64,000 nt of DNA from a virus, in the IMG/VR virus record IMGVR_UViG_3300027734_000038, one strand, 5' to 3'. The notes under the pieces are model-generated. The model did no database searches and was not told where the DNA came from. It was given only the letters and a program-made list of their open reading frames with translations. Both the position numbers and the translations under genes were made by a program. Numbering within the stretch: the stretch's first letter is position 1; every line of letters starts with the position of its first letter. Positions 30,394-53,648 of this stretch are shown here, in pieces.

Positions 30394-31533
30394 TTGGCAA
30401 CCAGCTCAAACTTTGTCGTTAAAAATGGCCTATCCGTAGGCGCAAATGCCGTTATTGCAGCTAACGGTGCGTGGATTGGTGCCAACACAAACCTCATCGG
30501 TGCAACTGGTCCTACAGGTGCCACAGGTCCACAAGGTGCAACTGGTTTTGGTGCTACTGGTGCTACAGGTATTATTGCACCTTGGATTTATATCACATCT
30601 ACAACCTCTGCGGTTGCAAATACTCAATATATCGCCAATACTGTTGGTGGTTCTTTCACTCTCACACTTCCATCTACACCAGTTTTAGGTACAACCATTG
30701 TTGTTACTGATGGTGGAAATTGGGGTAATAATAATCTCACAATCGGTCGTAACGGAAAAACAATTGAAGGTGATGCTTCTGATTTAATCTGTGATGTAGG
30801 TCAGACAACTATTCAGTTAATCTATGATAACATTACATGGCAGACAACTGCAACTATTGGTTCAAAAGGTGCTACTGGTATTACTGGTGCAACTGGTGTG
30901 CCGGCTGCATGGGCATATATCACAGCTAATACAAATGCTGGTGCCAACTCTCAATACATTGCTAATACAACAGGCGGTGCGTTTACATTAACACTACCTG
31001 CAACACCAGTAATTGGCACAACAGTAACAATTACCGATGGTGGTGATTGGGGTGTAAACAATTTAACTATTGCAAGAAATGGTTCTACAATTGAAGGTGT
31101 TGCTGATAATGTGGCGTTGAATCTTCCGTCAACATTAGTATACTTCATATATACTGGTACAACTTGGCAAGTAGTTACGACTGCTGGTTCACAAGGTGCC
31201 ACAGGCGTTACTGGTCCAACAGGACCTTCAGGCACAAATGGTGCCACAGGTTTAACCGGACCAACCGGTCCTACAGGTCCTACCGGTCCAACAGGACCTA
31301 CAGGTGCTACAGGTGCAGGCGCAACAGGTGCCACAGGTCCTGCCGGTCCATCAACAGTATCTTCAGGTGTAATTACTCTTTCAAGTTCTACACCATTTGT
31401 TTTAAATGCCAACACAATTACGGCAGATTACACAATTCCTGGTGGTTACAATGCCTTCAATGCTGGTCCAATGACTATTGCTACTGGTGTGAATGTAACG
31501 ATTGCTACTGATGCTAATTGGGTAATCATTTAA
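30394..31533 (+). CDS. Collagen-like hub protein: NFxxKNGL N-terminus, two gp10-like domains, C-terminal GPxT...W domain
   Basis: TTG start, inferred from identity with the N-termini of 35419 and 39297. G-X-T repeats. Two YIANT.GG.FTLTLP..P..G...D...W..NNLTI.RNG.TIEG domains. Confidence 0.8.
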
Positions 31534-31542
31534 GGATAAAAT

Positions 31543-31923
31543 ATGGCCGGCACATTAACATTAGACACATTAAAAACAAGCTCAGGAGTTCTTGCAACTC
31601 AGAATGGCATGACTGGTATTGCTAAGGCATGGGTAAATTTTTCTGTTGCAGGATCGGCTTGTTCTGTAGTTTCTTCCTTTAATGTTTCTTCTGTTACATA
31701 CAATTCAGCTGGAAATTTTACTATTAATATGACAACTGCAATGCCAAATGCAAATTATACAGCAATAATAGGATCAGTAAATACTTTTGGAAGTGGTGTT
31801 TATTACGGAACTGGTGTTTTTGGAACCAATACTACAAGTAGTTTTAGTATGAGGATGGTTGGTGGTAATGGCAGTTATATTGATGGATTAAATAACGGTT
31901 ATGCAGCAGTGTTCAGTTCATAA
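31543..31923 (+). CDS. Fibre-tip protein, family A (AKAWVNF)
   Basis: AKAWVNF...FNVSSVT...G.FTIN...AMPNANY. Confidence 0.7.
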   Translation: MAGTLTLDTLKTSSGVLATQNGMTGIAKAWVNFSVAGSACSVVSSFNVSSVTYNSAGNFTINMTTAMPNANYTAIIGSVNTFGSGVYYGTGVFGTNTTSSFSMRMVGGNGSYIDGLNNGYAAVFSS

Positions 31924-31932
31924 GGATAAACA

Positions 31933-32328
31933 ATGGCAGGCACACTAACTCTCTCAACATTATCTGATGGTACAAATAGTACCTCAGCAACTAATGCCAT
32001 TCAAGGTTCTGCAAAGGTTTGGGTAAATTTTAACGGCACAGGCACAGTAGCTATTAGGGCTTCTTATAATGTATCTAGCATTACTGACAACGGCACAGGC
32101 AACTACACAGTTAATTTTACAAACGCTTTAACCGATGCTAACTATGCAGTTCATGTAACAGGCACAGAAAATAATACTGGTGAGATTGCTCGTATTGCCA
32201 CTGTTTACGGGGACGCAAGCACAGGTGCTTCAGGCAAAACATCAAGTGCAGTAAGAGTAGTTTTTGGTGCATCAAACGCCGCTACTTTTTTTGATTCTGC
32301 CGAAATGAATGTAACTTGTTTTAGATAA
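31933..32328 (+). CDS. Fibre-tip protein, family A
   Basis: AKVWVNFNG...YNVSSITDNGTGNYTVNF; paralogue of 31543. Confidence 0.7.
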   Translation: MAGTLTLSTLSDGTNSTSATNAIQGSAKVWVNFNGTGTVAIRASYNVSSITDNGTGNYTVNFTNALTDANYAVHVTGTENNTGEIARIATVYGDASTGASGKTSSAVRVVFGASNAATFFDSAEMNVTCFR

Positions 32329-32345
32329 TTTATAAAGGAAAAAAA

Positions 32346-32765
32346 ATGACACAAGTAATTATTTTTACAAACGACAATGGTGGTGTATCAGTATGCACAC
32401 CAACAGGCGAATTGCCAATCGAAGCCGTGTTAGCAAAAGATGTACCAGAAGGTCGTGGTGCTAAGATTGTTAGTAACACAGATTTACCAAACGAACACAA
32501 TGATTTCTTCAATGCTTGGGAAATGGATGATGACGGTGTTGTTACTGTTAGTCTTACCAAAGCAAAAGAACTCACTAAGGCAAGACTTCGTTTAGAAAGA
32601 ACACCTTTGTTGACTGCACAAGATGTGTTATATCAACGTGCTCAAGAAGCTAATGCTGATACTACAGCAATTGTTGCCGAGAAGAACAGACTTCGTGATA
32701 TTACTTTGTTAGCTGATGCAGCAACAACTTTAGCTGCACTAAAAGCAATCTCAGTAGAGGCCTAA
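32346..32765 (+). CDS. Putative fibre assembly/chaperone protein (family A partner)
   Basis: Acidic N-terminus, then a helical R..R.PLL..D...K.RLRDIT segment resembling tail-fibre assembly proteins. Confidence 0.55.
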   Translation: MTQVIIFTNDNGGVSVCTPTGELPIEAVLAKDVPEGRGAKIVSNTDLPNEHNDFFNAWEMDDDGVVTVSLTKAKELTKARLRLERTPLLTAQDVLYQRAQEANADTTAIVAEKNRLRDITLLADAATTLAALKAISVEA

Positions 32766-32769
32766 TAAA

Positions 32770-33273
32770 ATGTCAGTCACCATTTCTGGTAGTGGACAAA
32801 TTGTAAAACAGATTCAACAGACTGTTGTTACAACTGGATCTTTTACTTCTACATCCACATCAATGGTGGACATTACCGGTATGTCTGTAAATATTACACC
32901 TAGTAATGTTGCAAACAAAGTATTGATTACTGTATGCATGACTTATGCACAACAGTCCAACTATAATGTGGCATTTCAATTGTTAAGAAATGGAACTCCT
33001 GTAGGTATTGGCACAAGCGGAACAACAGGACCAAATTATTCTTTTATTGCTTCGCCTGCTGGAACAAATACTCCAAGTAATGTTAATTGGACTTTTTTAG
33101 ATTCACCATCTTCAACTTCTGCACTCACATATAAAATACAATGTAGGCAACAACTTGGTGGTGCAGGAACATTTGCATTAAATTTTGCAAACGGATATTT
33201 AAATGCCACTGCTGATGTATATGGTGGTTGTTATACGTCAACAATCACGGCACAAGAAATAGCATACGCTTAA
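32770..33273 (+). CDS. Fibre-tip protein, family B (DSP..T...TY, C-terminal EIA)
   Basis: ITP....KVLI; LDSPSSTSALTYKIQ; STITAQEIA. Confidence 0.7.
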   Translation: MSVTISGSGQIVKQIQQTVVTTGSFTSTSTSMVDITGMSVNITPSNVANKVLITVCMTYAQQSNYNVAFQLLRNGTPVGIGTSGTTGPNYSFIASPAGTNTPSNVNWTFLDSPSSTSALTYKIQCRQQLGGAGTFALNFANGYLNATADVYGGCYTSTITAQEIAYA

Positions 33274-33283
33274 ATAATAACAA

Positions 33284-34339: not shown

Positions 34340-34348
34340 AAATAAAAA

Positions 34349-34987: not shown

Positions 34988-34999
34988 AAGGATAAAATA

Positions 35000-35263: not shown

Positions 35264-35265
35264 AT

Positions 35266-35412: not shown

Positions 35413-35418
35413 TAATAA

Positions 35419-36327
35419 ATGGCAACTAATTCAAACTTTAAAATCAAGAATGGCCTGACAGTCAACACGACTGATGTTATTGCTGCCAACGGAGCTTGGA
35501 TTGGTATTGCTACAAACTTAGTAGGTGGCACAGGCGCAACAGGTGTTACAGGTCCTACAGGTGCGACAGGCGTTCAAGGACTTTTAGGGCCCACAGGTCC
35601 TACTGGTGCCACGGGTATTACGGGTTCAACAGGACCAGATGGTCCAACCGGCCCAACCGGTTCTACAGGACCAACAGGTCCATTAGGTGCAACTGGTCTA
35701 ACAGGACCACAAGGTGCGACAGGCGTTACTGGTCCATCAGGTCCAGTCGGTTCAACAGGTATCACAGGACCTACTGGTCCTACAGGCCCAGCCGGTCCTA
35801 CTGGTGCAACTGGTGGTTTGCAAGCTTGGCTTGTAATTACTGCTAATACAGCTGCATCAGGCAACACACAATATATTGCTAACACAGCTGCTGGTTCATT
35901 TACATTAACATTACCTGCAACACCAAACATTGGTTCAACAGTTGCTGTTGCCGATGGTTACAGTTGGGGTGCCAACAATTTAGTTGTAGCACGCAATGGT
36001 TCTACTATTGAAAGAGTTGCAGATGATATCTCTCTCAATATTACAAACAGTTTAGTTTATTTTGTATACACAGGCGACACATGGCAGGTTGTATCTACTG
36101 CTGGTCCTGCCGGTGCAACTGGTGCTACAGGTGCAAATGGTAGTAATGGTGCTTCTGGTGCCACAGGTCCTGGTGGTTCATATACTGGATTTGTAATTCA
36201 CACAGATACTATTCAAGCAAACACAACGATTGCTTCAGGCAATAATGCCTTGTCTGTTGGACCAATCACACAAGCAAACAATGTCACAGTAACTCTTGCT
36301 AGCGGTCAACGCTGGATAGTAATCTAA
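35419..36327 (+). CDS. Collagen-like hub protein: NFxxKNGL N-terminus, one gp10-like domain, C-terminal GPIT...W domain
   Basis: Longest G-X-T tract in the window; ends [24 protein letters not shown]. Confidence 0.8.
35524..35817 (+). repeat. Collagen-like (Gly-X-Thr)n coding repeat
   Basis: About 30 GPT/GAT/GVT triplets. Similar tracts occur in 30394, 34349, 39297, 48069, 50958 and 53652. Confidence 0.9.
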
Positions 36328-36335
36328 GGAATAAC

Positions 36336-36926
36336 ATGGCTCTCATTTTTGATGGCACAACCGGTACAATTAGTGGAGCAGTAGTTGCCAACACACAGTT
36401 GTCTGGCACAATGACTTCTTCACAAATTGGTTCTGTTTCTAATACATCAATTACAGGCACTATGGCATACTCACAGATGCCTTCAGGTAGTGTTGTTCAA
36501 GTTGCTGTGGGTCAAACAGATTTTAACGGTACTTTAACTGAAGGTGCTTCATATACTGTTGGTTCAGCAATTACTCCTGTAACTAGTTATTCTAAACTAT
36601 TAATGGTTGGTAATGTATATTTGCGTTCACCTTATGCTTATGGTGGTTATGGCGATTATACTATTGGACCTAACTACGGTATTGGTAATAGCCTTTCAGA
36701 TTCAAGTAGTACCTATACAATATTTCTTCAAGGCATGAACTCTGGTAATTTTGGAGGAGGTTCTTATACTGCTTCATCAAGCACTCCAAGTATTATGCAT
36801 TATGCTGTAAAAGGCACCGGTTCTTGGACAACTTCTGACACTCCACGATATACTATGCAGATTGGTCCTGTTTATGGCGGAACCTATTGGGGTAAAATGA
36901 CAGTTATCTACTACTTTATTAAATAA
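36336..36926 (+). CDS. Fibre-tip protein, divergent family B
   Basis: MPSGSVVQV...ITP...SKLL. Confidence 0.6.
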   Translation: MALIFDGTTGTISGAVVANTQLSGTMTSSQIGSVSNTSITGTMAYSQMPSGSVVQVAVGQTDFNGTLTEGASYTVGSAITPVTSYSKLLMVGNVYLRSPYAYGGYGDYTIGPNYGIGNSLSDSSSTYTIFLQGMNSGNFGGGSYTASSSTPSIMHYAVKGTGSWTTSDTPRYTMQIGPVYGGTYWGKMTVIYYFIK

Positions 36927-36933: not shown

Positions 36934-37263
36934 ATGGAACAAGCAATTAAATTTATAGAAGCTGTCATAACATTGAGGCCAAATTCTATTGGTAAATTTG
37001 CCACTAGTGGTATTGAAATTACGGAATGGCACGATGAAAATAATATTCAGCCAACAAATGAAGAAGTCTTAGCAGAAGTTGCAAGAAAAGAATCTGAGTA
37101 TGACAACAATGAGTATCAAAGAAATAGAGCAAAAAAATATCCAGCAATTGCGGACCAACTTGATATGTTATGGCACGCAATGGATACTGGAGCATTACCT
37201 AAAGTTGATTCATTCTATGACGCCATTCAAGCCGTTAAGAATGAGTATCCTAAAGCAGAATAA
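36934..37263 (+). CDS. Putative fibre assembly partner (YQR.R..YP.I.DQLD family)
   Basis: Paralogue of 47759. Confidence 0.6.
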   Translation: MEQAIKFIEAVITLRPNSIGKFATSGIEITEWHDENNIQPTNEEVLAEVARKESEYDNNEYQRNRAKKYPAIADQLDMLWHAMDTGALPKVDSFYDAIQAVKNEYPKAE

Positions 37264-37273: not shown

Positions 37274-38194
37274 ATGAGCACAATATCAGCCGGCACAAGT
37301 AACACTACCTCACTCGTATACACAGGTGATACGACAGGTAACTTAGCGTTCCAAATTAATGGAACTACCGAAGCCATGCGTATCACTTCTGGTGGAAATG
37401 TGGGAGTTGGTACTACTAGTCCAGAAAAGAATTTTGATATTCTTGTGACTGGATCCAACCCAACATCAAATTTGCAAGTTCGAGCAAATCGCACAGGATA
37501 CGGAAATGTTAGAGCAGGACTTTCTGTTTATGCAGCAGGTAGTTCTTCTACAGACATTACAACGTTGGTTAATGAAGGCGGTGTTTTAGCATTTCAAACA
37601 GGATCTACAGAACGGATGCGTATTAAATCTACTGGTGCTGTTGTTGTTGGTAAAACAACTGAATCAGGAATGGCTACTGGCAGTTCTGTAAATATGGGTA
37701 TATGTTTAAATGATAGTGGCAATCCAGGAATCCTTACTATTCAAGAAAATACTGATGCTAATTTATATTTGTCTAAAGCAAGCGGATATTCATCAGGCAT
37801 ATATACAAGATTTTATGTAACAGGTACACAAGTAGGTAAGATTGAAAGTAACGGATCATCTACGTCTTATGTGACTTCTTCTGACTATCGTTTAAAAGAA
37901 AATATTACACCAATGATTGGTGCTTTGGCTAAAATAGCGTTGTTAAAACCTGTTACTTACAAATGGAAAGCTAACGGTTCTGCAAGTGAAGGTTTTATTG
38001 CCCATGAATTGCAAGAGGTTTGTCCAGAGGCAGTAAGTGGAAAAAAAGATGCCGTAAATAAAAATGGAGATATTGAGCCACAAGGTGTTGACACATCATT
38101 CTTAGTGGCTACTTTAACTGCCGCTATTCAAGAACTAAACGCTAAAGTAGATGCACAAGCCGCAGAAATTGCCGCATTGAAAGGAAATAATTAA
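37274..38194 (+). CDS. Fibre with TERMRI repeats and S74 chaperone
   Basis: SSDYRLKENI...GFIAHELQEV.P.AV.G.KD...LTAAIQEL. Confidence 0.85.
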   Translation: MSTISAGTSNTTSLVYTGDTTGNLAFQINGTTEAMRITSGGNVGVGTTSPEKNFDILVTGSNPTSNLQVRANRTGYGNVRAGLSVYAAGSSSTDITTLVNEGGVLAFQTGSTERMRIKSTGAVVVGKTTESGMATGSSVNMGICLNDSGNPGILTIQENTDANLYLSKASGYSSGIYTRFYVTGTQVGKIESNGSSTSYVTSSDYRLKENITPMIGALAKIALLKPVTYKWKANGSASEGFIAHELQEVCPEAVSGKKDAVNKNGDIEPQGVDTSFLVATLTAAIQELNAKVDAQAAEIAALKGNN

Positions 38195-38982
38195 TGCCTT
38201 CAACCGTCAATGCAGACAATGGTGTATCATCAGGTTCAGTAGGTCTTAAATACGCCTCTGACAATAGCGGAGTATTGGCTCTACAAACAAATGGTAACAC
38301 AGCAGTAACGATTACATCTGCAAACAATGTGGGTATTGGAACAACAAGTCCAGATTCATTACTTCATGTAGTTAATCCATTGAGTGCTTCTATTCGTGTT
38401 GGTTATGCCGGCGGTTCTACAAATTATTATGATGCATCTGTTCACACATTTAGAGCAAACACAGGATCACCTTCTGTATTTGTGGCAAATCAATATGGTA
38501 TTGGATTAGGGACAGTTACACCATCTTCAGGTATGGGTATTGCTTTTCCAGCGGCACAAGTTGCTTCATCTGATCCTAATACATTAGATGATTATGAAGA
38601 AGGTACATTTACACCTATTGTTTATGGTGGCAGTTCTACTGGAACAACAACTTACAGTTCTCAATATGGAAAATATACAAGAATTGGAAATGTTGTAACT
38701 ATTAGCGCCCAAATGGATTGGACTTCTGCTACAGGAACAGGGTCAATGCAGATTGGAGGTTTTCCTTTTACGAGTTCTAGCACAACAGGTATTAATCCAA
38801 TTGGAACCGTAATGATGTATAATATTGCCGTTCCAGCAAGCAGTATTTTCTTTTCTCTATATACAAACGGTAATAATACTGTTGCAAATATTTATGCTAA
38901 TAGAGATAACAATACTTGGACTGCCGTTCAAATGGATTCTAACGCTATATTGTTATACACATTAACTTATTTTACGGCTTAA
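38194..38982 (+). CDS. Fibre-tip protein (NTLDDYEEGTFTP family)
   Basis: LDDYEEGTFTP...GKYTRIGNVV...GGFPF. Confidence 0.7.
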   Translation: MPSTVNADNGVSSGSVGLKYASDNSGVLALQTNGNTAVTITSANNVGIGTTSPDSLLHVVNPLSASIRVGYAGGSTNYYDASVHTFRANTGSPSVFVANQYGIGLGTVTPSSGMGIAFPAAQVASSDPNTLDDYEEGTFTPIVYGGSSTGTTTYSSQYGKYTRIGNVVTISAQMDWTSATGTGSMQIGGFPFTSSSTTGINPIGTVMMYNIAVPASSIFFSLYTNGNNTVANIYANRDNNTWTAVQMDSNAILLYTLTYFTA

Positions 38983-39033: not shown

Positions 39034-39285
39034 ATGGCATTAACAAAAGAAGTAGTAATCGATAAAGTAGAAGTAGTAGAAAACGGAATTGTTCAGGTTC
39101 GTCAAGTAACACGAATCATGGAAGATGGTAATCAATTATCTTCTTCCTATCACCGTTGGACATTAACACCAGGTCAAGATGTAACTGACCAAGAATCAAA
39201 AGTTCAAGCAGTATGTAATGCTGTGTGGACAGAAGAAGTTATTGCTGCATACGAAGCACAACAAGAAGCTAACAGACCAGTTTAA
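39034..39285 (+). CDS. Putative fibre assembly partner (MALTKE...YHR family)
   Basis: ATG at 39034 with AGGAG at 39021-39025. Confidence 0.6.
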   Translation: MALTKEVVIDKVEVVENGIVQVRQVTRIMEDGNQLSSSYHRWTLTPGQDVTDQESKVQAVCNAVWTEEVIAAYEAQQEANRPV

Positions 39286-39296: not shown

Positions 39297-40106
39297 ATGG
39301 CAACTAATTCAAACTTCATAATTAAAAATGGCCTGACAGTAGGCGCTAATACTGTTATTGCCGCTAACGGTATGTGGGTTGGTGCCAACACAAATTTAGT
39401 AGGTGCCACAGGTATTGCTGGTCCAACAGGACCTACAGGTCCACAAGGTTCAACAGGTCCTGCCGGTCCAACTGGTGCAACAGGTACTATTACCGCATGG
39501 ACTAGAGTTACTGCCAATACAAATCTTACAGCCAATGCACAATACATTGCTGATACATCTGGTGGTCCTTTTACTGTAACACTACCAGCAACTCCATCTT
39601 TAGGAACTATTGAAGTTATTTCTGATGGCGCTGCATGGGGTAATAACAATCTGACAGTTGCTCGTAATGGTTCTACTATTGAAGGACAGGCACAAGATTT
39701 AATATTAAATATTTCAACTAGTTTAGTGTATTTAATTTATGATGGCACTACTTGGAATCTTACTTCGACTGCTGGTCCACAAGGTGCCACCGGTCCTTTA
39801 GGTCCTACTGGACCAACAGGTGCGACTGGTGCAGGTTCTACTGGTGCCACCGGTTCTACTGGACCTGGAGGTCCTGCCGGTCCATCCGGTCCAACAGGTC
39901 CAACTGGTGCAACAGGTGCTTTTTCTGGCACGACAGCAGCACAGATTATAACAACAAACACAACTGCAGCTACTTCTAATATAACCGGTTCTATTATTGG
40001 TGCTGGTGGTTTAGGTGTTTCAGGTAATGTTTATGCAGATGCAGTTTATTCTGGTGGTCAAGAAGTTATTGGAACAAGTCTAGCCTTTTCAATTGCTTTG
40101 GGGTGA
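39297..40106 (+). CDS. Collagen-like hub protein: NFxxKNGL N-terminus, one gp10-like domain, C-terminal AFSIALG
   Basis: Paralogous to 30394 and 35419 but with a different C-terminus. Confidence 0.8.
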   Translation: MATNSNFIIKNGLTVGANTVIAANGMWVGANTNLVGATGIAGPTGPTGPQGSTGPAGPTGATGTITAWTRVTANTNLTANAQYIADTSGGPFTVTLPATPSLGTIEVISDGAAWGNNNLTVARNGSTIEGQAQDLILNISTSLVYLIYDGTTWNLTSTAGPQGATGPLGPTGPTGATGAGSTGATGSTGPGGPAGPSGPTGPTGATGAFSGTTAAQIITTNTTAATSNITGSIIGAGGLGVSGNVYADAVYSGGQEVIGTSLAFSIALG

Positions 40107-40109
40107 TAA

Positions 40110-41131: not shown

Positions 41132-41140
41132 GGATAATTA

Positions 41141-43539: not shown

Positions 43540-43548
43540 GGATAATTA

Positions 43549-44550
43549 ATGTCATACATTGGAAATAGTCCTACACAATCAGCATTTGTCACCGATTTAT
43601 TTAACGGTACCGGTAGCACGACTGCATTTACCATGTCGGTCTCACCAGCTAATCCTGCCTCCATACTTGTTTCTGTATCTGGTGTTCTACAATCTCCTGA
43701 TACATATTCTATTTCAGGACAAACACTCAACTTCTCAGCGGCACCACCAAGTGCCACAGGAAATATTTCTGTAAGATATTTGGGAATACCTGCATCAGGT
43801 GTTACCACTACCGCATACAGAACACTTACCGAATTTACTGCAACGGCTGGTCAAACCACATTTACTCCACCAAGTTACACAGTAGGTTTTATATCAGTAT
43901 ACAGAAACGGTGTCATGTTGGGTTCAGCAGACTTTACTGCGACAAACGGAACTTCTGTGGTGTTGGCAAGCGGTGCAACTGCTGGTGATTTAGTTGTTAC
44001 AGAATCATTCTATGTTAGCTCAGTATTAAATGCAATACCAAATACAGCAAATGCAGTTAATAACTTATTGATTTCTGATGGTGCTATTAGTCAAACTAAA
44101 GTTGCAACTGGTGTGGCAGGAACAGGACCAGCATTTAGTGCTTATAATTCTGTTAATCAAACAAGTATTTCTAATGCTACATGGACTAAAGTAACATTAG
44201 ATACAGAAGAATTTGATACAAATAGTAATTTTGCTTCTAGTCGTTTTACTCCAACTGTTGCTGGTTATTATCAAATTAATGGTGAATTAGACACATATGG
44301 AACAAGTTTAAATTATTCATTAATTGCTATATACAAAAATGGTTCAATTTATAAACGTGGAAGTGGTTTAGGTAATTACACAACCTATGAATTTTATACA
44401 AGCATTTCGTCTATCGTTTATTTAAATGGTACAACCGATTATGTGGAACTATACGGATATTTAAATTCATCTTCTGCTGGAAGTAATATTTTTTATTCGG
44501 GTAATACACAAACTGGTTATTTCAATGGCGCACTAGTGAGGGCCGCATAA
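43549..44550 (+). CDS. Fibre: MSYIGN N-terminus, FNG..TAFT and TATAGQTTF domains, family C (C1q-like) tip
   Basis: GPAFSAY...EEFDTNSNF.SSRFTPTVAGYYQ...YLNGTTDYVELY. Confidence 0.75.
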   Translation: MSYIGNSPTQSAFVTDLFNGTGSTTAFTMSVSPANPASILVSVSGVLQSPDTYSISGQTLNFSAAPPSATGNISVRYLGIPASGVTTTAYRTLTEFTATAGQTTFTPPSYTVGFISVYRNGVMLGSADFTATNGTSVVLASGATAGDLVVTESFYVSSVLNAIPNTANAVNNLLISDGAISQTKVATGVAGTGPAFSAYNSVNQTSISNATWTKVTLDTEEFDTNSNFASSRFTPTVAGYYQINGELDTYGTSLNYSLIAIYKNGSIYKRGSGLGNYTTYEFYTSISSIVYLNGTTDYVELYGYLNSSSAGSNIFYSGNTQTGYFNGALVRAA

Positions 44551-45500
44551 TGACACAAGCCGCAATACTAGCTTCTTCAGCATCCTCTGGTGTTTCTACT
44601 GGATACAAAAATAGAGTTATCAATGGTGGCATGGTTATTAACCAAAGAGGCACAACATCAGGTGTAACTTCAGGTTACTTTGTTGACCGTTGGCAATTAA
44701 GTGGTTGTAGCACATCAAGTGTTTTAACTTCTAGTCTACCTACAGGATTTAGTAAAGGTATTAGTATTACTGCCACTTCAGGTAATCCAATTGCTATTCA
44801 TAAAATTGAAGCGGCAAATTGTTCTGATTTAAGTGGTCAAAGTGTTACGCTTAGTTTCTATGCACAGAATATTTCAAATGCCACCACATTATACGCATCA
44901 TTGGCATATGCAACTGCATCAGATAATTTTGGTGGCACAACAACCATTTCAGAACAAAATTTAGGAACACTAACGGGTTCATGGGTTAGATATACATACA
45001 CATGGAATAATTTACCAAGTGGTGTGCTTAACGGACTGTCAATCAATATTCTTTGTGGTGGTTCTGGAACATTCACCATGGGCATTACTGGTGTCCAGCT
45101 GGAAGTTGGAACCACGACAACAAATTTTGAATACCGTGATTACGGAAATGAATTGAGAATGTGCCAAAGGTATGCACAAAGATTTGGCGGTGATGTTGCT
45201 TATTCGGCAATAGGATTTGGCTTTGGTGATTCAGCTAATGGATGGGTAGATGCACAAGTCACACCACCAACAGTGATGAGAACTGTTCCTTCAGTAACAT
45301 CAAGTGGAAGTTTTAGAGTAGTACCACCTGATAATACAAGTGGTTTAGCTGTTACTGGAATTTCAATAAATGGTAGCACAGCAAATTCAAAACTATTTTA
45401 TATAATTTGCACGGCATCAAGCATTACTGGTTTTAGAGGTTATGTTTTAAGGGCGGACAATTCAACTTCTGCTTATATTCTTTTTTCTGCGGAGTTATAA
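44550..45500 (+). CDS. Fibre-tip protein, family D (NRxING...QLE.G...CQRY...SAEL)
   Basis: Paralogue of 49222 and 52399. Possible carbohydrate-binding jelly-roll. Confidence 0.7.
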   Translation: MTQAAILASSASSGVSTGYKNRVINGGMVINQRGTTSGVTSGYFVDRWQLSGCSTSSVLTSSLPTGFSKGISITATSGNPIAIHKIEAANCSDLSGQSVTLSFYAQNISNATTLYASLAYATASDNFGGTTTISEQNLGTLTGSWVRYTYTWNNLPSGVLNGLSINILCGGSGTFTMGITGVQLEVGTTTTNFEYRDYGNELRMCQRYAQRFGGDVAYSAIGFGFGDSANGWVDAQVTPPTVMRTVPSVTSSGSFRVVPPDNTSGLAVTGISINGSTANSKLFYIICTASSITGFRGYVLRADNSTSAYILFSAEL

Positions 45501-45666: not shown

Positions 45667-45873
45667 ATGGCACTCACAAAAATACCAGCAACAATGGTGG
45701 GTAATTCCACCGCAAATACTGCTATGTCAGTTGGTGTTCCAATTATTGAGAACACACAGACTGTTTCATATCCGTATACAATCAGCGCCAACAATTCAGC
45801 AATCTCTGTTGGTCCAATAACACTTTCAGCCAATGTAACAATTGGTTCTGGAAGTAGATGGGTAATCGTATGA
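45667..45873 (+). CDS. Minimal hub: MALTKI N-terminus plus GPIT...W domain
   Basis: Ends SAISVGPITLSANVTIGSGSRWVIV. Confidence 0.75.
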   Translation: MALTKIPATMVGNSTANTAMSVGVPIIENTQTVSYPYTISANNSAISVGPITLSANVTIGSGSRWVIV

Positions 45874-46409
45874 CAGCATTAGTAATTCTTGGAGATACAA
45901 GTGGTTCAGTAACCTTGGCGGCACCAGCGGCTGCAGGTTCAACTACTCTAACTTTGCCTACACAAACCGGCACGGTTGGTCTAAGTGGTCCTGCATTTTT
46001 GGCTTATGGTACTGCTTTGACTAGTTGTGCTAGTGGTGCTTCCGTTAAGGTTAATTTAGCAGCAAAAGATTTTGATACAACAAGTTCATTTAATACCTCA
46101 ACATCTCGCTGGACTCCACTTGTTGCTGGGTATTATCTATTAACTGCTTCTATGTATTTTCCAAGTGCGGCATCTGGTAAAAACGGAGAATTATTTTTTC
46201 TAAAAAATGCAGCAACAAGCATAACCAACGGATTAATGAGCACTTATAACGGACAAGGTATGATTTTATGTGCATCAACAATTTGTTATCTTAATGGTTC
46301 TACTGATTATGTTGAATGTTATGTATATCAAGATTCTGGTAGCACTTTAAATATGGGTTCCAATTCTTATGGTTATAACTTTAACGGTTGTTTTTTAAGA
46401 GGTGCATAA
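45870..46409 (+). CDS. Fibre-tip protein, family C
   Basis: Start MTALV (ATGA overlap); GPAF.AY...FDT...WTPLVAGYY...NGSTDYVE. Confidence 0.7.
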   Translation: MTALVILGDTSGSVTLAAPAAAGSTTLTLPTQTGTVGLSGPAFLAYGTALTSCASGASVKVNLAAKDFDTTSSFNTSTSRWTPLVAGYYLLTASMYFPSAASGKNGELFFLKNAATSITNGLMSTYNGQGMILCASTICYLNGSTDYVECYVYQDSGSTLNMGSNSYGYNFNGCFLRGA

Positions 46410-46573
46410 TGAGTTTATATGATAAAATTGTTGCACTTTATCCAGAATTAGTTGCTACTGATTTTTCTCCGTCTATGGGTTCAATCAGGTTGCAAGATGA
46501 AGGTAATGGTGTTTATATTGCCAAATGGGAACACCCAACATTACCTAAACCTACGGATGAACAGTTAGCATGA
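46409..46573 (+). CDS. XkdW-like small partner protein
   Basis: MSLYDKI..LYPEL...DF...I.LQD.G.G.YIAKW.HPTL..PT.EQL. Confidence 0.65.
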   Translation: MSLYDKIVALYPELVATDFSPSMGSIRLQDEGNGVYIAKWEHPTLPKPTDEQLA

Positions 46574-47091
46574 CCACAACAATTAACGCAAGTACCTCTG
46601 CCGGTTTAATAATTACTCCTGATACTTCAGGTAATATTCAGTTACAATATAATGGTGTGGCTGCACCAGCATTTAGTGCTTATGTTACAGGAAATCAAAG
46701 TATTTCTTCAGGTACTTTTACAAAAATGCAATGTGGTACAGAAGAATGGGATACAGCTAGTTGTTATGATAACGCAACAAATTATAGGTTTACTCCTACT
46801 GTTGCCGGATACTATCAATTTAATGGTATGTGGGGTGCGGCTTCAGGATCACCAACAAGAGTTATTATAGCCTTGTATAAAAATGGTAGTGTTGCTAGAT
46901 ATGGATTAGATTTAGGTATAAGTTCTGCAGGATTCAATAATGGAGCAGGAGATGTGGTTAGTTCCATGTTATATCTAAATGGCACAACCGATTATGTTGA
47001 ACTTTATGCATATGCCGCAGGTGGTGCAACAATCCAAGGCGGAAATAGTGCATCTGGTTATTTTCAAGGTTACTTAGCAAGAGCTGTTTAA
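46570..47091 (+). CDS. Fibre-tip protein, family C
   Basis: PAFSAY...EEWDT...RFTPTVAGYYQ...LNGTTDYVELY. Confidence 0.7.
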   Translation: MTTTINASTSAGLIITPDTSGNIQLQYNGVAAPAFSAYVTGNQSISSGTFTKMQCGTEEWDTASCYDNATNYRFTPTVAGYYQFNGMWGAASGSPTRVIIALYKNGSVARYGLDLGISSAGFNNGAGDVVSSMLYLNGTTDYVELYAYAAGGATIQGGNSASGYFQGYLARAV

Positions 47092-47109: not shown

Positions 47110-47292
47110 ATGAAAACTTTATACGAAAAAATTCTATCAATCTATCCAGAACTAACTGATGCTGATTTTATGCCAGGTCGTGGCACAATTATGCTTCAGA
47201 ATGATTCTGACGGCCGTGGTGATTACATCAGAGAATGGAATCATGCAACATTGGCAGAACCAACAGAAGAACAATTAGCGAGCGCTGAATAA
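47110..47292 (+). CDS. XkdW-like small partner protein
   Basis: LYEKI..YPEL...DF...LQNDSDGRGDYI..W. Paralogue of 46409. Confidence 0.65.
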   Translation: MKTLYEKILSIYPELTDADFMPGRGTIMLQNDSDGRGDYIREWNHATLAEPTEEQLASAE

Positions 47293-47738
47293 TGTCTATT
47301 GTATTGAACGGTACTAATAATCAAATTACTGGAGTACCGGGATTGGTATTGCAAGTGGTTAGTTCTACTTTTACTTCTTCGTTTTCTTCTTCATCGGGAA
47401 GTTTTGTTTCTATAGGATTAACCGCATCTATTACACCAACAAGTTCTTCAAGTAAAATTTTGATATTAATAGATTCGTTTGTTCGTAGTGATGCTGCAAA
47501 TTTTGTTGATGCAACAATTTATAAAAATTCCACTAATTTAGGTGGAGCATATGGTTTAAAAAATGCTTATGTAAACGCAGCATTTGTTATGCCAATTCCG
47601 TTTACTTATTATGATTCACCAGCAACAACTTCTTCAACTTCTTATACATTGTATATGCGGACTGAAAATGCCGCCACTTTTTACTTAGAAGCTGCTGGTA
47701 GAGTTTCAACAATCACACTTATGGAAATAGCAGCTTAA
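47292..47738 (+). CDS. Fibre-tip protein, family B
   Basis: VLQVV...ITPTSSSSKIL...DSPATTS..SY...STITLMEIAA. Confidence 0.7.
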   Translation: MSIVLNGTNNQITGVPGLVLQVVSSTFTSSFSSSSGSFVSIGLTASITPTSSSSKILILIDSFVRSDAANFVDATIYKNSTNLGGAYGLKNAYVNAAFVMPIPFTYYDSPATTSSTSYTLYMRTENAATFYLEAAGRVSTITLMEIAA

Positions 47739-47758: not shown

Positions 47759-48055
47759 ATGAGAATCTCTAAAATTGATGCAATCTTATCTCTATCACCT
47801 GGTGCTGAAGTAGTAGTGCGTGGTGAAGAAGTAGAATGGATTAATCCTTCTACTGCACCTGTAACTGAAGCACAAATTGCTGCTGAGTTGGTAAGACTCC
47901 AAGCAGCCTACGAAGCAAAACAATATCAGCGTGACCGTGCTGGTGAATATCCAGCAATTGGTGACCAATTGGATGCTTTGTTCCATGCAGGAGTATTCCC
48001 TGAAGCCATGGCAGAAATCATTCAGGCCGTCAAAGATAAATACCCTAAATCATAA
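47759..48055 (+). CDS. Putative fibre assembly partner (YQR.R..YP.I.DQLD family)
   Basis: YQRDRAGEYPAIGDQLDAL.H...AVKDKYPK. Confidence 0.6.
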   Translation: MRISKIDAILSLSPGAEVVVRGEEVEWINPSTAPVTEAQIAAELVRLQAAYEAKQYQRDRAGEYPAIGDQLDALFHAGVFPEAMAEIIQAVKDKYPKS

Positions 48056-48068
48056 TTTAGGATAATCA

Positions 48069-48692
48069 ATGCAATATCAAAGTTTCGTTGCTGGGTCAGG
48101 AATATCAGGTGCTACCGGTCCAACCGGTGCTACTGGTGTCATTGCACCGTGGACAAGAATCTCCGCAAATACAAGTGCTTCGGCTAATACACAGTATCTA
48201 GCCAACACAGCAACTGGTGCCTTCACTCTAACATTACCAGGTACACCATCAGTTGGTGTTATGGTAGTGATTGCTGATGATTATAACTTTGGTGCAAACA
48301 ATCTTTTTGTTGCAAGAAATGGTTCTACTATTCAAGGCATTGCTGATGACTTAGGTATTAACATCAGCAACTCATTGACAACATTGATTTATGATGGTAC
48401 TACTTGGAGAGTTTCTACAAATGCTGGACCACAAGGTGCAACTGGTGCCACAGGTCCTACAGGAACTTCTGGTACCAACGGTGCCACAGGTGCTACCGGT
48501 TTAGGTGCTACTGGTGCTACTGGTGCCAGTTTGTTTGCTGATTCCAATAATGTTATTTTTTTAAATAATACGTTGATTACTTCTAACACAACATTGCAAC
48601 CAGGTCGTGGTGCATTTTCTGTTGGACCAATCTCTGTTAATACAGGTGTTCAACTTATTGTTTCATCTAACACAAGGTATGTGGTACTATGA
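48069..48692 (+). CDS. Hub: ISGATG N-terminus, gp10-like domain, C-terminal GPIS...Y domain
   Basis: [10 protein letters not shown]; YLANT..AFTLTLP..P..G...NNL..RNGSTI.G; SVGPISVNTGVQLIVSSNTRYVVL. Confidence 0.75.
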   Translation: MQYQSFVAGSGISGATGPTGATGVIAPWTRISANTSASANTQYLANTATGAFTLTLPGTPSVGVMVVIADDYNFGANNLFVARNGSTIQGIADDLGINISNSLTTLIYDGTTWRVSTNAGPQGATGATGPTGTSGTNGATGATGLGATGATGASLFADSNNVIFLNNTLITSNTTLQPGRGAFSVGPISVNTGVQLIVSSNTRYVVL

Positions 48693-49222
48693 GTAATATT
48701 ATTCTAGGCTCAGGACCTTCAGGTTCAGGTTCATTAACCTTACAAGCACCGAATACAAATAGTAATCAGACAGTTAATTTTCCTGATGCTTCTGGCATAC
48801 CCATGGTTAGTGGTAATATGCCAGCGTTTTATGCTTATCAAAATTCAGCACAATCAATTCCAAATGTAACTTGGACTAAAGTATTGTTTCAAGTAGAAGA
48901 ATTTGATACTAATAGTAATTTTGCTTCAAGCCGTTTTACTCCTACTGTTGCTGGTTATTACCAACTTACTTCTCAATTGCAATATACAACTATTGCTGGT
49001 GGAAGAAATATGTTTGTAATATATAAAAATGGTGCTGAGTATAGACACCTACAGGATATGCAAACAAGTTACACTATTGGATTAATGGGAACTTCATTAG
49101 TTTATGCAAATGGTTCATCAGACTATTTTGAAATTTATATTTATACGTCAACTGGTGCATACACATTAGATAATAATTCAGCAATAACATATTTTAGCGG
49201 TTGTTTAGTGAGGGCTGCATAA
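48689..49222 (+). CDS. Fibre-tip protein, family C
   Basis: MVSGNMPAF.AY...EEFDTNSNFASSRFTPTVAGYYQ...LVRAA. Confidence 0.7.
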   Translation: MSNIILGSGPSGSGSLTLQAPNTNSNQTVNFPDASGIPMVSGNMPAFYAYQNSAQSIPNVTWTKVLFQVEEFDTNSNFASSRFTPTVAGYYQLTSQLQYTTIAGGRNMFVIYKNGAEYRHLQDMQTSYTIGLMGTSLVYANGSSDYFEIYIYTSTGAYTLDNNSAITYFSGCLVRAA

Positions 49223-50322
49223 TGCCATACGGTTCAATCTCAGTAGACCAAATTAATAACACCACAGGATATTCTCTTGGTGCTGGTAACGCTTCTATTA
49301 TGAAGAATCGCATTATCAATGGTGCGATGGTTATTGACCAAAGAAATGCTGGTGCTAGTGTTACGCCAGCAAATAACACTTACACTTTAGACCGATGGAA
49401 TACTTATCAAAGCACTTCTTCTGCTTATAGTGTTCAACAAAATGCTGGTTCTGTAACACCACCATTAGGGTTTACAAACTATCTTGGCGTAACTTCTTTA
49501 GCAGCAACTTCATTATCTGCTGGAAGTTATTTTATGCTTACTCAAATTATTGAAGGATTTAATGTTGCTGATTTAGGTTGGGGAAGTGCTAACGCCAAAA
49601 CTATAACATTATCTTTTTGGGTGCGTAGTTCTTTAACTGGAACATTTGGCGGATCTTTACAAAATGGTGGAACAAGAAGCTACCCATTTACTTACACAAT
49701 TTCTGCCGCAAATACTTGGGAACAAAAATCAATTACTGTTGCAGGTGATACAAGTGGAACTTGGGCAACAGATAATACTGCTGGCATTAAATTACGAATT
49801 GGTCTTGGTGTTGGCACAACCGCAAGCACAACTGCTGGCGCATGGGCAACCGGCGATTACTATTCAGCAACAGGTGCCACTTCAATAGTAGGAACAAACG
49901 GTGCCACATTCTATATTACTGGAGTTCAGTTGGAAGTTGGAAGTGTGGCCACAGGTTATGAATATGAAAATATTGCTCAAACTTATTCAAAATGCCAACG
50001 CTATTACACAGTTTTGTTATCAGGCAACGATAAGAGTTTATGCCTTGCAACTTGGTATAACACTTCAGAATGGGATGCAGTAGTATTTTTTCCAACGATG
50101 CGGTCAGCACCTACAGCATCATCAACAACAGTATCTTCTGGATATTATTTTGATAAATTAGGTGGCAATATTACTTTTGACAATATTAGTGGTGTTTTTG
50201 GTGCTGGCTTAAATGTTGCACAACCATACAAAGTGGCATTAAGTGGCGGTGTTGCTGGTTATTGCGGAAGCATTAGAACTTTAAATGCTTCTTGTTTTAT
50301 TGCTTTAAGTGCGGAGTTATAA
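49222..50322 (+). CDS. Fibre-tip protein, family D
   Basis: Start MPYGS (TAATG overlap); KNRIINGAM.IDQRN...GVQLEVG...CQRYY...SAEL. Confidence 0.75.
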   Translation: MPYGSISVDQINNTTGYSLGAGNASIMKNRIINGAMVIDQRNAGASVTPANNTYTLDRWNTYQSTSSAYSVQQNAGSVTPPLGFTNYLGVTSLAATSLSAGSYFMLTQIIEGFNVADLGWGSANAKTITLSFWVRSSLTGTFGGSLQNGGTRSYPFTYTISAANTWEQKSITVAGDTSGTWATDNTAGIKLRIGLGVGTTASTTAGAWATGDYYSATGATSIVGTNGATFYITGVQLEVGSVATGYEYENIAQTYSKCQRYYTVLLSGNDKSLCLATWYNTSEWDAVVFFPTMRSAPTASSTTVSSGYYFDKLGGNITFDNISGVFGAGLNVAQPYKVALSGGVAGYCGSIRTLNASCFIALSAEL

Positions 50323-50323
50323 A

Positions 50324-50491
50324 ATGACCTATCAATTATCAAATTTTCGTGGCAAATTAGCTTGCATTGTAAAAACTGATGGTAACATGAAACATTTTAT
50401 TCCTTTATCGAAAGATAACACCGATTACCAAGAATATCTAAAATGGGTTGCAGAAGGTAACACACCAGAACCAGCAGAAGGCACAGAATGA
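50324..50491 (+). CDS. Small partner protein, DNTDYQ family
   Basis: Start MTYQL; DNTDYQEYLKWVAEGNTPEPA. Confidence 0.75.
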   Translation: MTYQLSNFRGKLACIVKTDGNMKHFIPLSKDNTDYQEYLKWVAEGNTPEPAEGTE

Positions 50492-50961
50492 CAACGACTA
50501 TTGACGGTAATTCAGGAGTTATATTTCCAAATAACACTACACAAGCTAGTGCTGGTCAAGTGTTGCAGGTGGTTAATGGCACTTATTCAGGCCCCTATTT
50601 TTCAACAACAAGTACCACTTTTGTATCTACTGGATTAACGGTAACTATTACACCTAAGTTTGTTACAAGTAAAATTTTATTACTTTTACAAGTTGAAGTT
50701 TATAATGATACAGCAAATAAAGGTGGTGATTTAACCATTTATAAAAATGGTGCAAATTTAGCCTCAGGTTTATTAGGAAGAATGTATCCTATTTCTGGTC
50801 AATTAGCTATTAATATTCCTATTAATTATTACGATTCGCCATCAACAACATCAGCAACAACTTATACACTTTATATTAAAACAACAAATGCTGGATATGC
50901 TTTCAATGCTTTTCAAGATGCTTTTCCATCAACAATTACTGCATTGGAAATAGCAGCATGA
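50488..50961 (+). CDS. Fibre-tip protein, family B
   Basis: GQVLQVV...ITPKF.TSKIL...DSPSTTSATTY...EIAA. Confidence 0.7.
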   Translation: MTTTIDGNSGVIFPNNTTQASAGQVLQVVNGTYSGPYFSTTSTTFVSTGLTVTITPKFVTSKILLLLQVEVYNDTANKGGDLTIYKNGANLASGLLGRMYPISGQLAINIPINYYDSPSTTSATTYTLYIKTTNAGYAFNAFQDAFPSTITALEIAA

Positions 50962-51329
50962 CAATATACTTAGGGCAAATTGCTGGTTCTGGAATATCTG
51001 GTGCAACCGGTCCTACAGGTCCAACTGGACCATCTGGTGCTACTGGTGTATTTCCAACAAGCAGTTCAGCTAACTTAGCAATCACTAATGCCAATACATC
51101 AACATCAAATACTACTGGTGCTCTGACTGTTGCAGGTGGTGTAGGTGTTACAGGTAATGTATGGGTAGATACTGTTGTTGTTACGAATGGTTTGATACTT
51201 AATTCTAACACAATAAATAGAAGTTATACAGTACCAGACAATTACAATGCTGGTTCATTTGGTCCAATCACAGTAGCAAACTCTGCGATTGTTACAGTAC
51301 CAAGTGGTTCAATTTGGACCGTGGTTTAA
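50958..51329 (+). CDS. Hub: ISGATG N-terminus plus GPIT...W domain
   Basis: [10 protein letters not shown]; ends GPITVANSAIVTVPSGSIWTVV. Confidence 0.75.
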   Translation: MTIYLGQIAGSGISGATGPTGPTGPSGATGVFPTSSSANLAITNANTSTSNTTGALTVAGGVGVTGNVWVDTVVVTNGLILNSNTINRSYTVPDNYNAGSFGPITVANSAIVTVPSGSIWTVV

Positions 51330-51338
51330 GGATAAAGA

Positions 51339-51848
51339 ATGACATTCAAAGTTGATGGATCAAACGGATTAACATTTCCAAATAACACTACACAAGCTAG
51401 TGCTGGCCAAGTGTTGCAAGTTGTTCAAGCAGAATATGCCACACAAGTATCTTTATCTTCTATAACATATACAGATACCGGATTATCCGCAACCATTACT
51501 CCTAAATTTGCAACAAGTAAAATTTTAGTTAATATAAGTCAAAATCTATACATATACAGAGAGTTTGCATTTCAATATGGATATCTTCAACTATTGAGAA
51601 ATGGTTCTGTTGCAAAAGATTTTAGATTAGTTATGAATCAAACTGCTGGAAATCCTGCTGGCGGAAGTTATCCTTACCACGACATGAGTGCGGTTGTTGG
51701 ATTAAGTTATTTGGATTCACCAGCAAGCACTTCTGCTTTAACATATAAAACACAACAAAAATGTGGAACAACAAGCAATGGCGGAACAATAATTGCTCAA
51801 ATTGATAGTGCTCCATCTTTCATTACACTTATGGAGATTGCAGCCTAA
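51339..51848 (+). CDS. Fibre-tip protein, family B
   Basis: GQVLQVV...ITPKFATSKILV...DSPASTSALTYK...MEIAA. Confidence 0.7.
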   Translation: MTFKVDGSNGLTFPNNTTQASAGQVLQVVQAEYATQVSLSSITYTDTGLSATITPKFATSKILVNISQNLYIYREFAFQYGYLQLLRNGSVAKDFRLVMNQTAGNPAGGSYPYHDMSAVVGLSYLDSPASTSALTYKTQQKCGTTSNGGTIIAQIDSAPSFITLMEIAA

Positions 51849-52399
51849 TGCCAATTAAATTACAATCTTCTTCTGGTGGTTCAGTTACTTTAGATGTGCC
51901 GGTCACAGCAAGTAACTTTAATGTAACTGTACCTAATGCTTCTGGTACTGCTATGGTTAGCGGTAATATGCCAGCGTTTAGTGCTTATAAAACTTCCCAT
52001 CAAAGTTATTCAAATAATACTTGGACAAAAATAACTTACGACACAGAAGAATATGATACCAATAGTAATTTTGCTTCAAGCACTTTTACTCCCACAGTTG
52101 CAGGGTATTATCTGTTTACTGCAAGAAACCAATTTATTGCAGATGGAGTTGCAATGGCTGAAATAAATTCAGCGTTTTTTAAAAATGGCACTATTGCTAA
52201 AACAGGAACTTATAAGTATCAACCAGCGGCACTTACTGCACAATTTGGAAGTAACATTTCTGCTGTAATTTATTGCAACGGTACAACAGATTATGTTGAA
52301 TGTTACGGAAGAACTGACGGAAGCACTTTGTATGTTTATGGTGCAGCTGGTGCGGCGCCTTACACATACTTTCAAGGCATTTTAATGAGGGCTGCATAA
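51848..52399 (+). CDS. Fibre-tip protein, family C
   Basis: MVSGNMPAFSAY...DTNSNFAS..FTPTVAGYY...NGTTDYVE...MRAA. Confidence 0.7.
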   Translation: MPIKLQSSSGGSVTLDVPVTASNFNVTVPNASGTAMVSGNMPAFSAYKTSHQSYSNNTWTKITYDTEEYDTNSNFASSTFTPTVAGYYLFTARNQFIADGVAMAEINSAFFKNGTIAKTGTYKYQPAALTAQFGSNISAVIYCNGTTDYVECYGRTDGSTLYVYGAAGAAPYTYFQGILMRAA

Positions 52400-53487
52400 T
52401 GTCGGTACAATACGGCGGAGATAAAATAACATTTGCTGATGGTTCTTCTACATCTAGTGGATATACTTTTAGAAATAGAATCATTAACGGTGCCATGGTT
52501 ATAAGCCAATATAACGGCACAAGTAGTGTATCAATAGATAACACTAAAAACCAATACTACATTGACAGATGGGCTATTCAAAACAATACTGGTTCTGCGG
52601 TGTTTTCTTATCAACAAGTTACAACTGCACCAACCGGATTTAACAATAGTTTAAAAATAACTGTTACTACTGCTGATGGTTCTTTAACTTCTACTGCTAA
52701 AGCACAAATTTATCAACCAATTGAAGGTTACAACATTGCCGATTTAGGATGGGGAACTGCCAACGCCAAATCCGTTACCTTGTCATTTTGGGTTCAATCT
52801 AGTGTAACAGGAACTTTTGGTGGTGCATTGGGCAACAATGCTAATGATAGAAGTTATCCATTTACATATACAATCTCATCAGCAAATACTTGGGAACAAA
52901 AATCAATTACCATTGCTGGTGATACAACAGGCACTTGGCTAACTACTAATGGTTTAGGCATCAATGTTGATTTTAGTTTAGGTGCTGGAACTTCTCGTAG
53001 TGGAACTGCTGGTACTTGGGGTGGTGCTTGGTACACTTCTGCTACTGGTGCAACTAATTTATTAGCTACAAACGGAGCCACATTCTACATTACTGGTATT
53101 CAGTTTGAAGTAGGAAGTTCATCAACAACTTTTGAAGCTCGTGATTACGGAAATGAATTAAGAATGTGTCAGCGGTATTATCAGTTATGTAATGGATTTC
53201 TTGGAACTCCGGGCGCTTCTACTACAATCATGTATACATCTATTCAATACCAAGTTGCAATGAGAGCAAATCCATCTTTAGGACAAACAGGAGTTATTAA
53301 TATGACTGCACCCGGTGTTGATACATGGCAACAATCTAGCACAGGTATAGCAGCTGGAGGCCAAAATACAACAGGAACATGGATTCAATTAAACAATTTT
53401 TCTGGTTTAACTCAGCATAGACCATATGTCCAGTCCGTTAATTATGCTGGCAATGGATATGTTATTACTTTATCTGCGGAGTTATGA
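52399..53487 (+). CDS. Fibre-tip protein, family D
   Basis: RNRIINGAM...IEG.N.ADLGWG.ANAK..TLSFWV...CQRYY...SAEL. Confidence 0.75.
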   Translation: MSVQYGGDKITFADGSSTSSGYTFRNRIINGAMVISQYNGTSSVSIDNTKNQYYIDRWAIQNNTGSAVFSYQQVTTAPTGFNNSLKITVTTADGSLTSTAKAQIYQPIEGYNIADLGWGTANAKSVTLSFWVQSSVTGTFGGALGNNANDRSYPFTYTISSANTWEQKSITIAGDTTGTWLTTNGLGINVDFSLGAGTSRSGTAGTWGGAWYTSATGATNLLATNGATFYITGIQFEVGSSSTTFEARDYGNELRMCQRYYQLCNGFLGTPGASTTIMYTSIQYQVAMRANPSLGQTGVINMTAPGVDTWQQSSTGIAAGGQNTTGTWIQLNNFSGLTQHRPYVQSVNYAGNGYVITLSAEL

Positions 53488-53648
53488 TGATTTATAAATT
53501 AATGAATGTAATGGGACATGAATCGGTAAGTTTATTTAAAGATACAGAATTTGTAATGAATATTCCATTTGATCCAGATAACACAGATTACCAAAAATAT
53601 CTAAAATGGGTTGCAGAAGGCAACGAACCATTACCAGCGGACGAATAA
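53484..53648 (+). CDS. Small partner protein, DNTDYQ family (54 aa, not in the ORF track)
   Basis: MMIYKLMNVMGHESVSLFKDTEFVMNIPFDPDNTDYQKYLKWVAEGNEPLPADE. Confidence 0.8.
   Translation: MMIYKLMNVMGHESVSLFKDTEFVMNIPFDPDNTDYQKYLKWVAEGNEPLPADE

Follow-up and report, generated by a model that had tools for sequence, protein, structure and literature searches.

A C-terminal hub module of phage tail fibres and the three classes of tip genes that mostly follow it

The window analysed here, a stretch of 64,000 nucleotides from the IMG/VR virus record IMGVR_UViG_3300027734_000038, carries a tail fibre locus in which five proteins, the hubs, end in the same module of about 45 residues, GP(I/M)(T/S)...W/Y. 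Each hub gene is followed by three genes for tip proteins, and this arrangement recurs in other phages, where the N-termini of the three tips usually belong to three different classes (alpha, beta and gamma). The position of the module, the tip count, the classes, the swapping of heads and the nesting of cassettes (a hub with its tips) were obtained by computation from the sequences, and from these results we infer docking and geometry. We lean towards a fibre-tip junction with three non-equivalent slots, where the N-terminal strands of the tips would dock on the end of a beta-helix as addresses.

Hub and tip genes of the fibre locus

The locus lies in the structural region of a T4-like phage, with every gene on the + strand, and the PHROGs labels for its genes are tail fibre, collagen-like tail or unknown. 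Judging from sequence and position, it would be flanked by baseplate-wedge-like genes on one side and by neck/tail-completion genes, the conserved trio at 55615-58397, on the other. All 5 hub and 15 tip open reading frames (ORFs) that an earlier sequence-only reading had placed in this locus are present on the + strand at the named positions (Table 1), hub 30394 with a TTG start codon and tip 45870 starting at the second Met of an ORF that opens at 45858. The module is the terminus of all 5 hubs, and these were the only copies found in the window.

As claimed in that reading, three tips separate each hub from the following hub or collagen plug gene in 5/5 cases. None of the plug genes 33284, 34349, 39297 and 53652 scored as a tip start with the N-terminal profiles described below, and 42445, which belongs to no cassette, gave a borderline score. 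The locus does not look like a shufflon or invertible cassette, in which tips would be promoterless 3' fragments between crossover repeats and a recombinase would be present: all window tips have their own ATG and a single orientation, and in a search that covered direct repeats the 20 largest families all lay in paralogous coding sequence.

The hub module

The module has matches in 9,360 protein clusters, taken at 50% identity. It lies at most 6 residues from the C-terminus in 642 of the 643 copies in the fetched loci, and it is C-terminal in 272 of the 274 database proteins that match it. Its carriers are unrelated: gp17 of the T7-like phage P-SSP7, cyanomyophage fibres of 3,000 residues, a baseplate protein of a Vibrio myophage and adaptors of 60-90 residues. 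No family of Pfam or NCBIfam matches the module, PHROGs cover it only as the last stretch of fibre families, and the nearest Atlas clusters have no common family among them. A scan of GTDB for the module gave at least one contig of a metagenome-assembled genome. Our paper searches, which covered the literature incompletely, found no description of the module or of the three-tip rule; both are real and widespread and seem to be undescribed. No natural fusion of a hub with a following tip was found in the fetched loci and database proteins. Two proteins (P0023 and P0029) carry five and three tandem copies of the module, respectively.

The AlphaFold2 (AF2) model of the module has seven short strands with a predicted local distance difference test score (pLDDT) of 86, and the couplings within the module are spaced i+19 to i+26. 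No match was found by sequence search of the PDB with the hub, alpha and beta profiles, nor by Foldseek against the PDB, and the BFVD search returned family members only. The VIA matches of the hub model were weak (best Z 2-3.3) and largely beta-helices, among them bactofilin 6ria (Z 2.6, root-mean-square deviation 1.6, 39 aligned) and antigen 43 7kob (Z 2.5, root-mean-square deviation 1.9, 45 aligned). The module is predicted to be a two-rung single-chain beta-helix that reaches the C-terminus.

Number of tips in other genomes

About 520 loci were fetched and their genes were called with a simple custom caller. The profiles of the tip N-termini were built on hand-labelled examples, retrained once on loci up to L213, because the first automatic count had overlooked tips behind endonuclease insertions, and then frozen. 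Since training had included the tips of the window, the enrichment was tested on other genomes: in the non-training loci, tip-type N-termini were present in 717 of 1,931 genes at most 9 genes downstream of a hub, versus 24 of 1,868 genes elsewhere.

Among 105 complete, de-duplicated cassettes counted blind, 79 had three tips, 13 two, 3 one, 4 four and 5 none, and the remaining one is a 3+3 locus scored as seven. When the first blind set was inspected, about seven of the cases other than three looked to be three-tip cassettes in which a tip had been missed or falsely called, while a few of the automatic threes are probably two. Three is the modal tip count in 40 of 60 carrier families, and the cultured phages S-T4, Venkman, S-RIM44, ICBM2 and MEP401 have three tips each. 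The predicted narrow distribution in other genomes was therefore found, with about 75% of the complete cassettes at three and about 4% at four. The stronger claim that every hub has exactly three did not survive, as about 12% have two tips, some hubs (S-CAM7) have none nearby and tandem hubs share one tip set. Because of these two-tip lineages, tipless hubs and shared tandem sets, three stands as a sharp mode and almost a ceiling rather than a law.

Cassettes can also be nested: in L133, L164 and RB11-B a tip itself ends in a hub module, giving two hubs and six tips, and RB11-B has two more beta-like genes behind its six tips. A large podophage-like lineage (L006-L015, L020, L027-L049) has two tandem hubs with Cys-rich N-termini and one three-tip set. 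In the Pseudomonas phages Ep4 (L004) and PP21 (L086), the hubs are divergent and carry a short extension at the C-terminus, and a single beta-type tip is present.

Three classes of tip N-termini

The sequence-only reading had seen one generic strand-turn start on all tips. Tip-type N-termini are indeed recognisable, but their first 10-35 residues form three classes rather than one peptide. The alpha class is long (strand, Gly turn, strand, Ala-Pro, strand) and the gamma class short. One tip of each class was observed in 109 of 156 triplets versus 33 expected, and in the blind sets alone in 52 of 80 versus 17. Two alpha tips stood together in only 2 of the 156 triplets, versus 28 expected. In the window, hubs 3-5 have one tip per class, and the sets of hubs 1 and 2 are by score of beta-beta-gamma type.

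Three docking positions on a trimeric hub had been proposed earlier. The count of three recurs, but equivalent symmetric sites on a trimer leave the scarcity of two-alpha triplets unexplained, and for this reason the slots look non-equivalent.

All six class orders occur, gamma-alpha-beta being the commonest (61/156). This dominance of one order would be expected if the tips were mutually exclusive alternative caps, one type per fibre end, and three merely an inherited cassette size. The existence of two-tip, four-tip and shared cassettes and the non-independence of the loci point the same way. We nevertheless consider this quite unlikely, since alternatives for a single site should have one common N-terminus, not three distinct ones, and the class composition survives reordering, head replacement, nesting and moves among 60 carrier families.

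Two-tip cassettes may miss any class, the pairs alpha-beta, alpha-gamma and beta-gamma all being found. A fixed chain in which the hub binds one class, which makes the site for the second, which makes the site for the third, should not tolerate such losses. This serial stack would give one of each without three different faces, it agrees with the alpha module being the longest and the gamma the shortest, and the tandem repeats of P0023 and P0029 suggest that a solenoid can extend; even so, we regard it as improbable.

Exchange of the tip heads

The heads are exchanged freely behind fixed N-termini. Each of the six largest head families was found with alpha, beta and gamma N-termini. In the sister phages L005 and L085, the hubs are 92-100% and the tip N-termini 80-100% identical, and eight of the nine heads are 36-57% identical. 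Different head families are combined in 79 of 86 alpha-beta-gamma triplets.

The S74 chaperone requires a homotrimer, and exactly one S74 tip is present in each of 22 triplets, so that the heads cannot always be one heterotrimer. It is very improbable that the three tip genes always form a single heterotrimeric head, and the mixed head families confine this arrangement to a subset at most. Such a subset could be the all-beta triplets, of which 11 of 14 are of one head family and which have a median length ratio of 1.08, or genes 37-39 of P-SSP7, paralogues of 191-198 residues. Three consecutive paralogues of similar length are found in P-SSP7 and in most all-beta triplets, and in none of the window's five cassettes. 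The precedent is the tail proteins of the DSLV2 virophage (PMC12724248), which also come from three consecutive genes with position-specific classes and are proposed to form a heterotrimer. Those are collar/gp37-like paralogues in a fixed order with no such hub described, whereas the order is free and the heads are mixed here.

The family B profile matched the C-terminus of orf22 in PDB 9efk, an 18-chain protein that we take to be a Legionella phage fibre, with E=3e-26. Family C heads are weakly C1q-like. Genes resembling C1q, lectin and XkdW are typical of the hypervariable islands of marine phages (PMC3909814). The head sequences and the P-SSP7 literature indicate that the tips are host-recognition proteins.

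The 18-chain fibre protein with a family B head and the 22 triplets with one S74 tip, for which a homotrimer is required, are both compatible with each hub protomer capping one tip homotrimer (a 1:3 stack on a pseudo-threefold beta-helix), contacts between neighbouring tips enforcing one of each class. A three-sided single-chain helix fits a trimer, and the shortness of the linkers agrees with a coaxial head. Equivalent sites would however take any number of genes, yet four tips are rare and two alphas almost never occur together, and hub 3 lacks collagen and any other obvious stalk for trimerisation. We therefore hold this stack to be unlikely.

No match to Gly_rich_2 (polyglycine-sandwich) was found in the 12 window tips scanned; the domain is present in plug gene 53652. 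The segment 53652-55563, which holds this gene, with Fn3 and Gly_rich_2 domains, and a 132-residue partner, is 99% identical in L005, though the adjacent tip heads differ.

A possible three-slot junction

In the three-slot junction that we favour, the N-terminal strands of the tips would dock on the open beta-helix end by strand addition and serve as addresses, and each fibre end would display three different host-binding proteins. The geometry is more tentative: possibly each face of the last rung of a hub chain takes the first strand of one class (hub3:alpha3:beta3:gamma3). One strand per class per hub chain is preferred because slots that differ are needed for unlike partners capped at three, and a single-chain three-sided helix supplies them. 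Unlike heads would then trimerise each on their own, heads of cassettes with three same-length paralogues may form a heterotrimer, and the small partner genes may act as assembly chaperones. In the window, the five junctions would sit on a branched fibre tree with gp10/XD-like domains as inner forks and up to 15 tips.

Modelling and covariation did not decide on this docking. Complex prediction with three hub chains and the alpha, beta and gamma N-termini gave a score of 0.01, which is no answer and evidence neither way. A first pass of hub-tip covariation assigned strand 1 of alpha to the last strand of the hub and beta to its middle strand; this is a lead only, the top z values (5.3, 4.1 and 4.4) being near those of relatedness-preserving swaps (3.5-4.9). 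An AF2 model of an artificial read-through from hub 5 to the gamma tip gave a pLDDT of 71-77 for the tip strand and a predicted template modelling score of 0.68, with no control and with a tether that biases the result, and the fold search with this model was uninformative.

Several observations weigh against the three-slot junction. By automatic counting, about a quarter of the complete cassettes deviate from three tips. Several lineages do have two-tip cassettes, and the hubs of S-CAM7 (L087), L203 and L209 have no adjacent tips, although these may be encoded elsewhere. A further 18/156 triplets are all-beta and so do not show the three classes. The beta class itself was pooled from three sub-profiles, a choice made after the data were seen; with the six raw profiles unpooled, the tips are still all different in 111 of 156 triplets. 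The cassettes are related by descent, so that the counts are only partly corrected and the expected values overstate the significance, and part of the pattern could go back to an ancestor with three genes. Finally, three trimeric heads on linkers of about 25 residues would be crowded round one small junction. As a separate observation, the hub genes L203:2 and L209:11 lie directly upstream of neck-like genes.

It is conceivable, although we would not yet count on it, that the socket is universal, unrelated podo-, sipho- and myophages mounting three swappable receptor-binding proteins per fibre end and nesting the sockets into trees. If this three-address socket is true, it is a new type of connector whose sequence code can be read, and it tells where gp37-39 of P-SSP7 sit. 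If the geometry is true, a homotrimeric fibre can display three different adhesins, and the module is a compact three-way protein connector. In abundant aquatic phages, the fibre ends are unresolved in cryo-electron microscopy and the hypervariable host-recognition islands consist mostly of 'hypothetical' genes. The module and three tags give a simple rule to pick receptor-binding genes in thousands of uncultured genomes.

P-SSP7 and other known systems

The hub module is the C-terminus of P-SSP7 gp17, and the genes 37-39 behind gp17 encode tips of the gamma, alpha and beta class whose heads belong to family B. P-SSP7 gp17 is trimeric, its N-terminus being solved and its distal part not resolved (10.64898/2026.08.19.745834). 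Genes 37-39 were described as three paralogues that form one cassette; the proteins gp37 and gp38 occur in virions, at a location left open, and have host-range mutations, and no homologues of genes 37 and 38 were found in other T7-like cyanophages (PMC5520035). That study, unlike the present analysis, has no docking module, classes or general rule. We predict that gp37 and gp38 sit at the C-terminal junction of gp17, which is testable in a cultured phage. P-SSP7 carries a fourth tip-like gene (041), which is probably a deletion relic of a two-cassette locus, because its relatives L285-287 and L299 hold two 3-tip cassettes.

As a connector, the hub module is not an XD domain, and it is not a cap made of one adhesin either, though it would work like branched systems of receptor-binding proteins (RBPs) and gp38-type tips. 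In T2 and S16 (gp37-gp38), a separate adhesin attaches through its N-terminus to the end of a trimeric fibre, one monomer per trimer (3:1). This layout, with one adhesin gene after the fibre gene, corresponds to one tip, seen in only 3 of the 105 blind cassettes as against three in 79. Similarly, in the phiKMV-like Ar-KM, gp45 of the gp44-gp45 pair docks with its N-terminus on a trimeric fibre end and there are three further fibre genes, but it is one monomer per trimer, with a 3:1 mismatch, docked via a short helix (10.64898/2026.05.18.726046). The scaffold of the chain-like fibre of A1002 recruits different fibre proteins by beta-sheet augmentation, as eleven dimers along a rope protein and not as three tips on a C-terminal module (PMC13730344). 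In the branched, XD-based complexes of the Ackermannviridae CBA120 and S117 (tailspikes TSP1-4), several RBPs share an anchor, as they would in the junction proposed here, and these complexes likewise have conserved N-terminal docking parts and exchangeable heads (PMC11414711). They differ in that XD is an N-proximal jelly-roll of about 90 residues with one partner each, whereas the hub is a C-terminal, predicted beta-helix of about 45 residues with three class-coded partners.

Possible inner branching and neighbouring genes

Five XD-like domains are present in carriers of the window (two in 30394, one each in 35419, 39297 and 48069), with a weak match to the CBA120 tailspike 7rfv (E=0.002). 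They are distinct from the hub module, since hubs 45667 and 50958 have no XD and 0 of 7 XD-bearing proteins in the loci fetched from other genomes are hubs. Their number equals that of the five genes with a plug N-terminus (33284, 34349, 48069, 50958 and 53652). A 1:1 inner branching code from XD-like domains to plug N-termini is plausible. The fibre genes 30394, 35419 and 39297 have a common N-terminal segment of about 50 residues with 68-75% DNA identity, which the C-terminal domains of 27065 and 25990 may anchor.

Table 1. Hub, tip and partner genes of the fibre locus in the window
Feature	Position	Strand	Description
Hub 1	30394..31533	+	Fibre segment: collagen, two gp10/XD-like domains, C-terminal hub module
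Tip	31543..31923	+	Beta-class N-terminus, head family A
Tip	31933..32328	+	Beta-class N-terminus, head family A
Small partner gene	32346..32765	+	Putative assembly chaperone; found again after family A tips in other loci
Tip	32770..33273	+	Gamma-class N-terminus, head family B
Hub 2	35419..36327	+	Collagen, one XD-like domain, hub module
Tip	36336..36926	+	Gamma-class N-terminus
Partner gene	36934..37263	+	Paralogue of 47759
Tip	37274..38194	+	Variant N-terminus; C-terminal S74 intramolecular chaperone (PF13884, 4e-14)
Tip	38194..38982	+	Variant N-terminus, DDYEEG-type head
Partner gene	39034..39285	+	Similar gene after similar tip in S-T4
Hub 3	45667..45873	+	68 residues; short plug N-terminus and hub module, no collagen
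Tip	45870..46409	+	Alpha-class N-terminus; head family C, weakly C1q-like
Partner gene	46409..46573	+	Paralogue of 47110
Tip	46570..47091	+	Beta-variant N-terminus, head family C; C1q E=0.08 over whole domain, below cut-off
Partner gene	47110..47292	+	XkdW-like (PF09636, 2e-7)
Tip	47292..47738	+	Gamma-class N-terminus, head family B
Partner gene	47759..48055	+	Paralogue of 36934
Hub 4	48069..48692	+	Plug N-terminus, one XD-like domain, collagen, hub module
Tip	48689..49222	+	Alpha-class N-terminus, head family C
Tip	49222..50322	+	Beta-class N-terminus, head family D (phrog_4492, 8e-47)
Partner gene	50324..50491	+	Type that comes after family D tips
Tip	50488..50961	+	Gamma-class N-terminus, head family B
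Hub 5	50958..51329	+	Plug N-terminus, short collagen, hub module
Tip	51339..51848	+	Gamma-class N-terminus, head family B (family profile matches PDB 9efk orf22)
Tip	51848..52399	+	Alpha-class N-terminus, head family C
Tip	52399..53487	+	Variant N-terminus taken as beta, head family D
Partner gene	53484..53648	+	Type that comes after family D tips

A second type of adaptor is found at 39297-45500, where a short hydrophobic motif closes 39297 and an endonuclease gene and the 109-residue 40802 come next. The genes after these, 41141 and 43549, have a common N-terminus of 80 residues, and similar pairs are present in other loci. The endonuclease (40110-40802) is a GIY-YIG/NUMOD3 homing endonuclease within the fibre locus, and endonuclease-like genes split many outside cassettes too. 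Directly upstream of the collagen-rich fibre genes, the segment 28648-30356 holds an oxygenase-like gene, with 2OG-Fe(II) motifs recognised by eye, and a GT1 glycosyltransferase gene, possibly fibre-modifying enzymes. Further upstream (21251-22714), a long-fibre-like gene of 487 residues lies by a baseplate protein of 2,087 residues, with PHROGs matches to distal long tail fibre.

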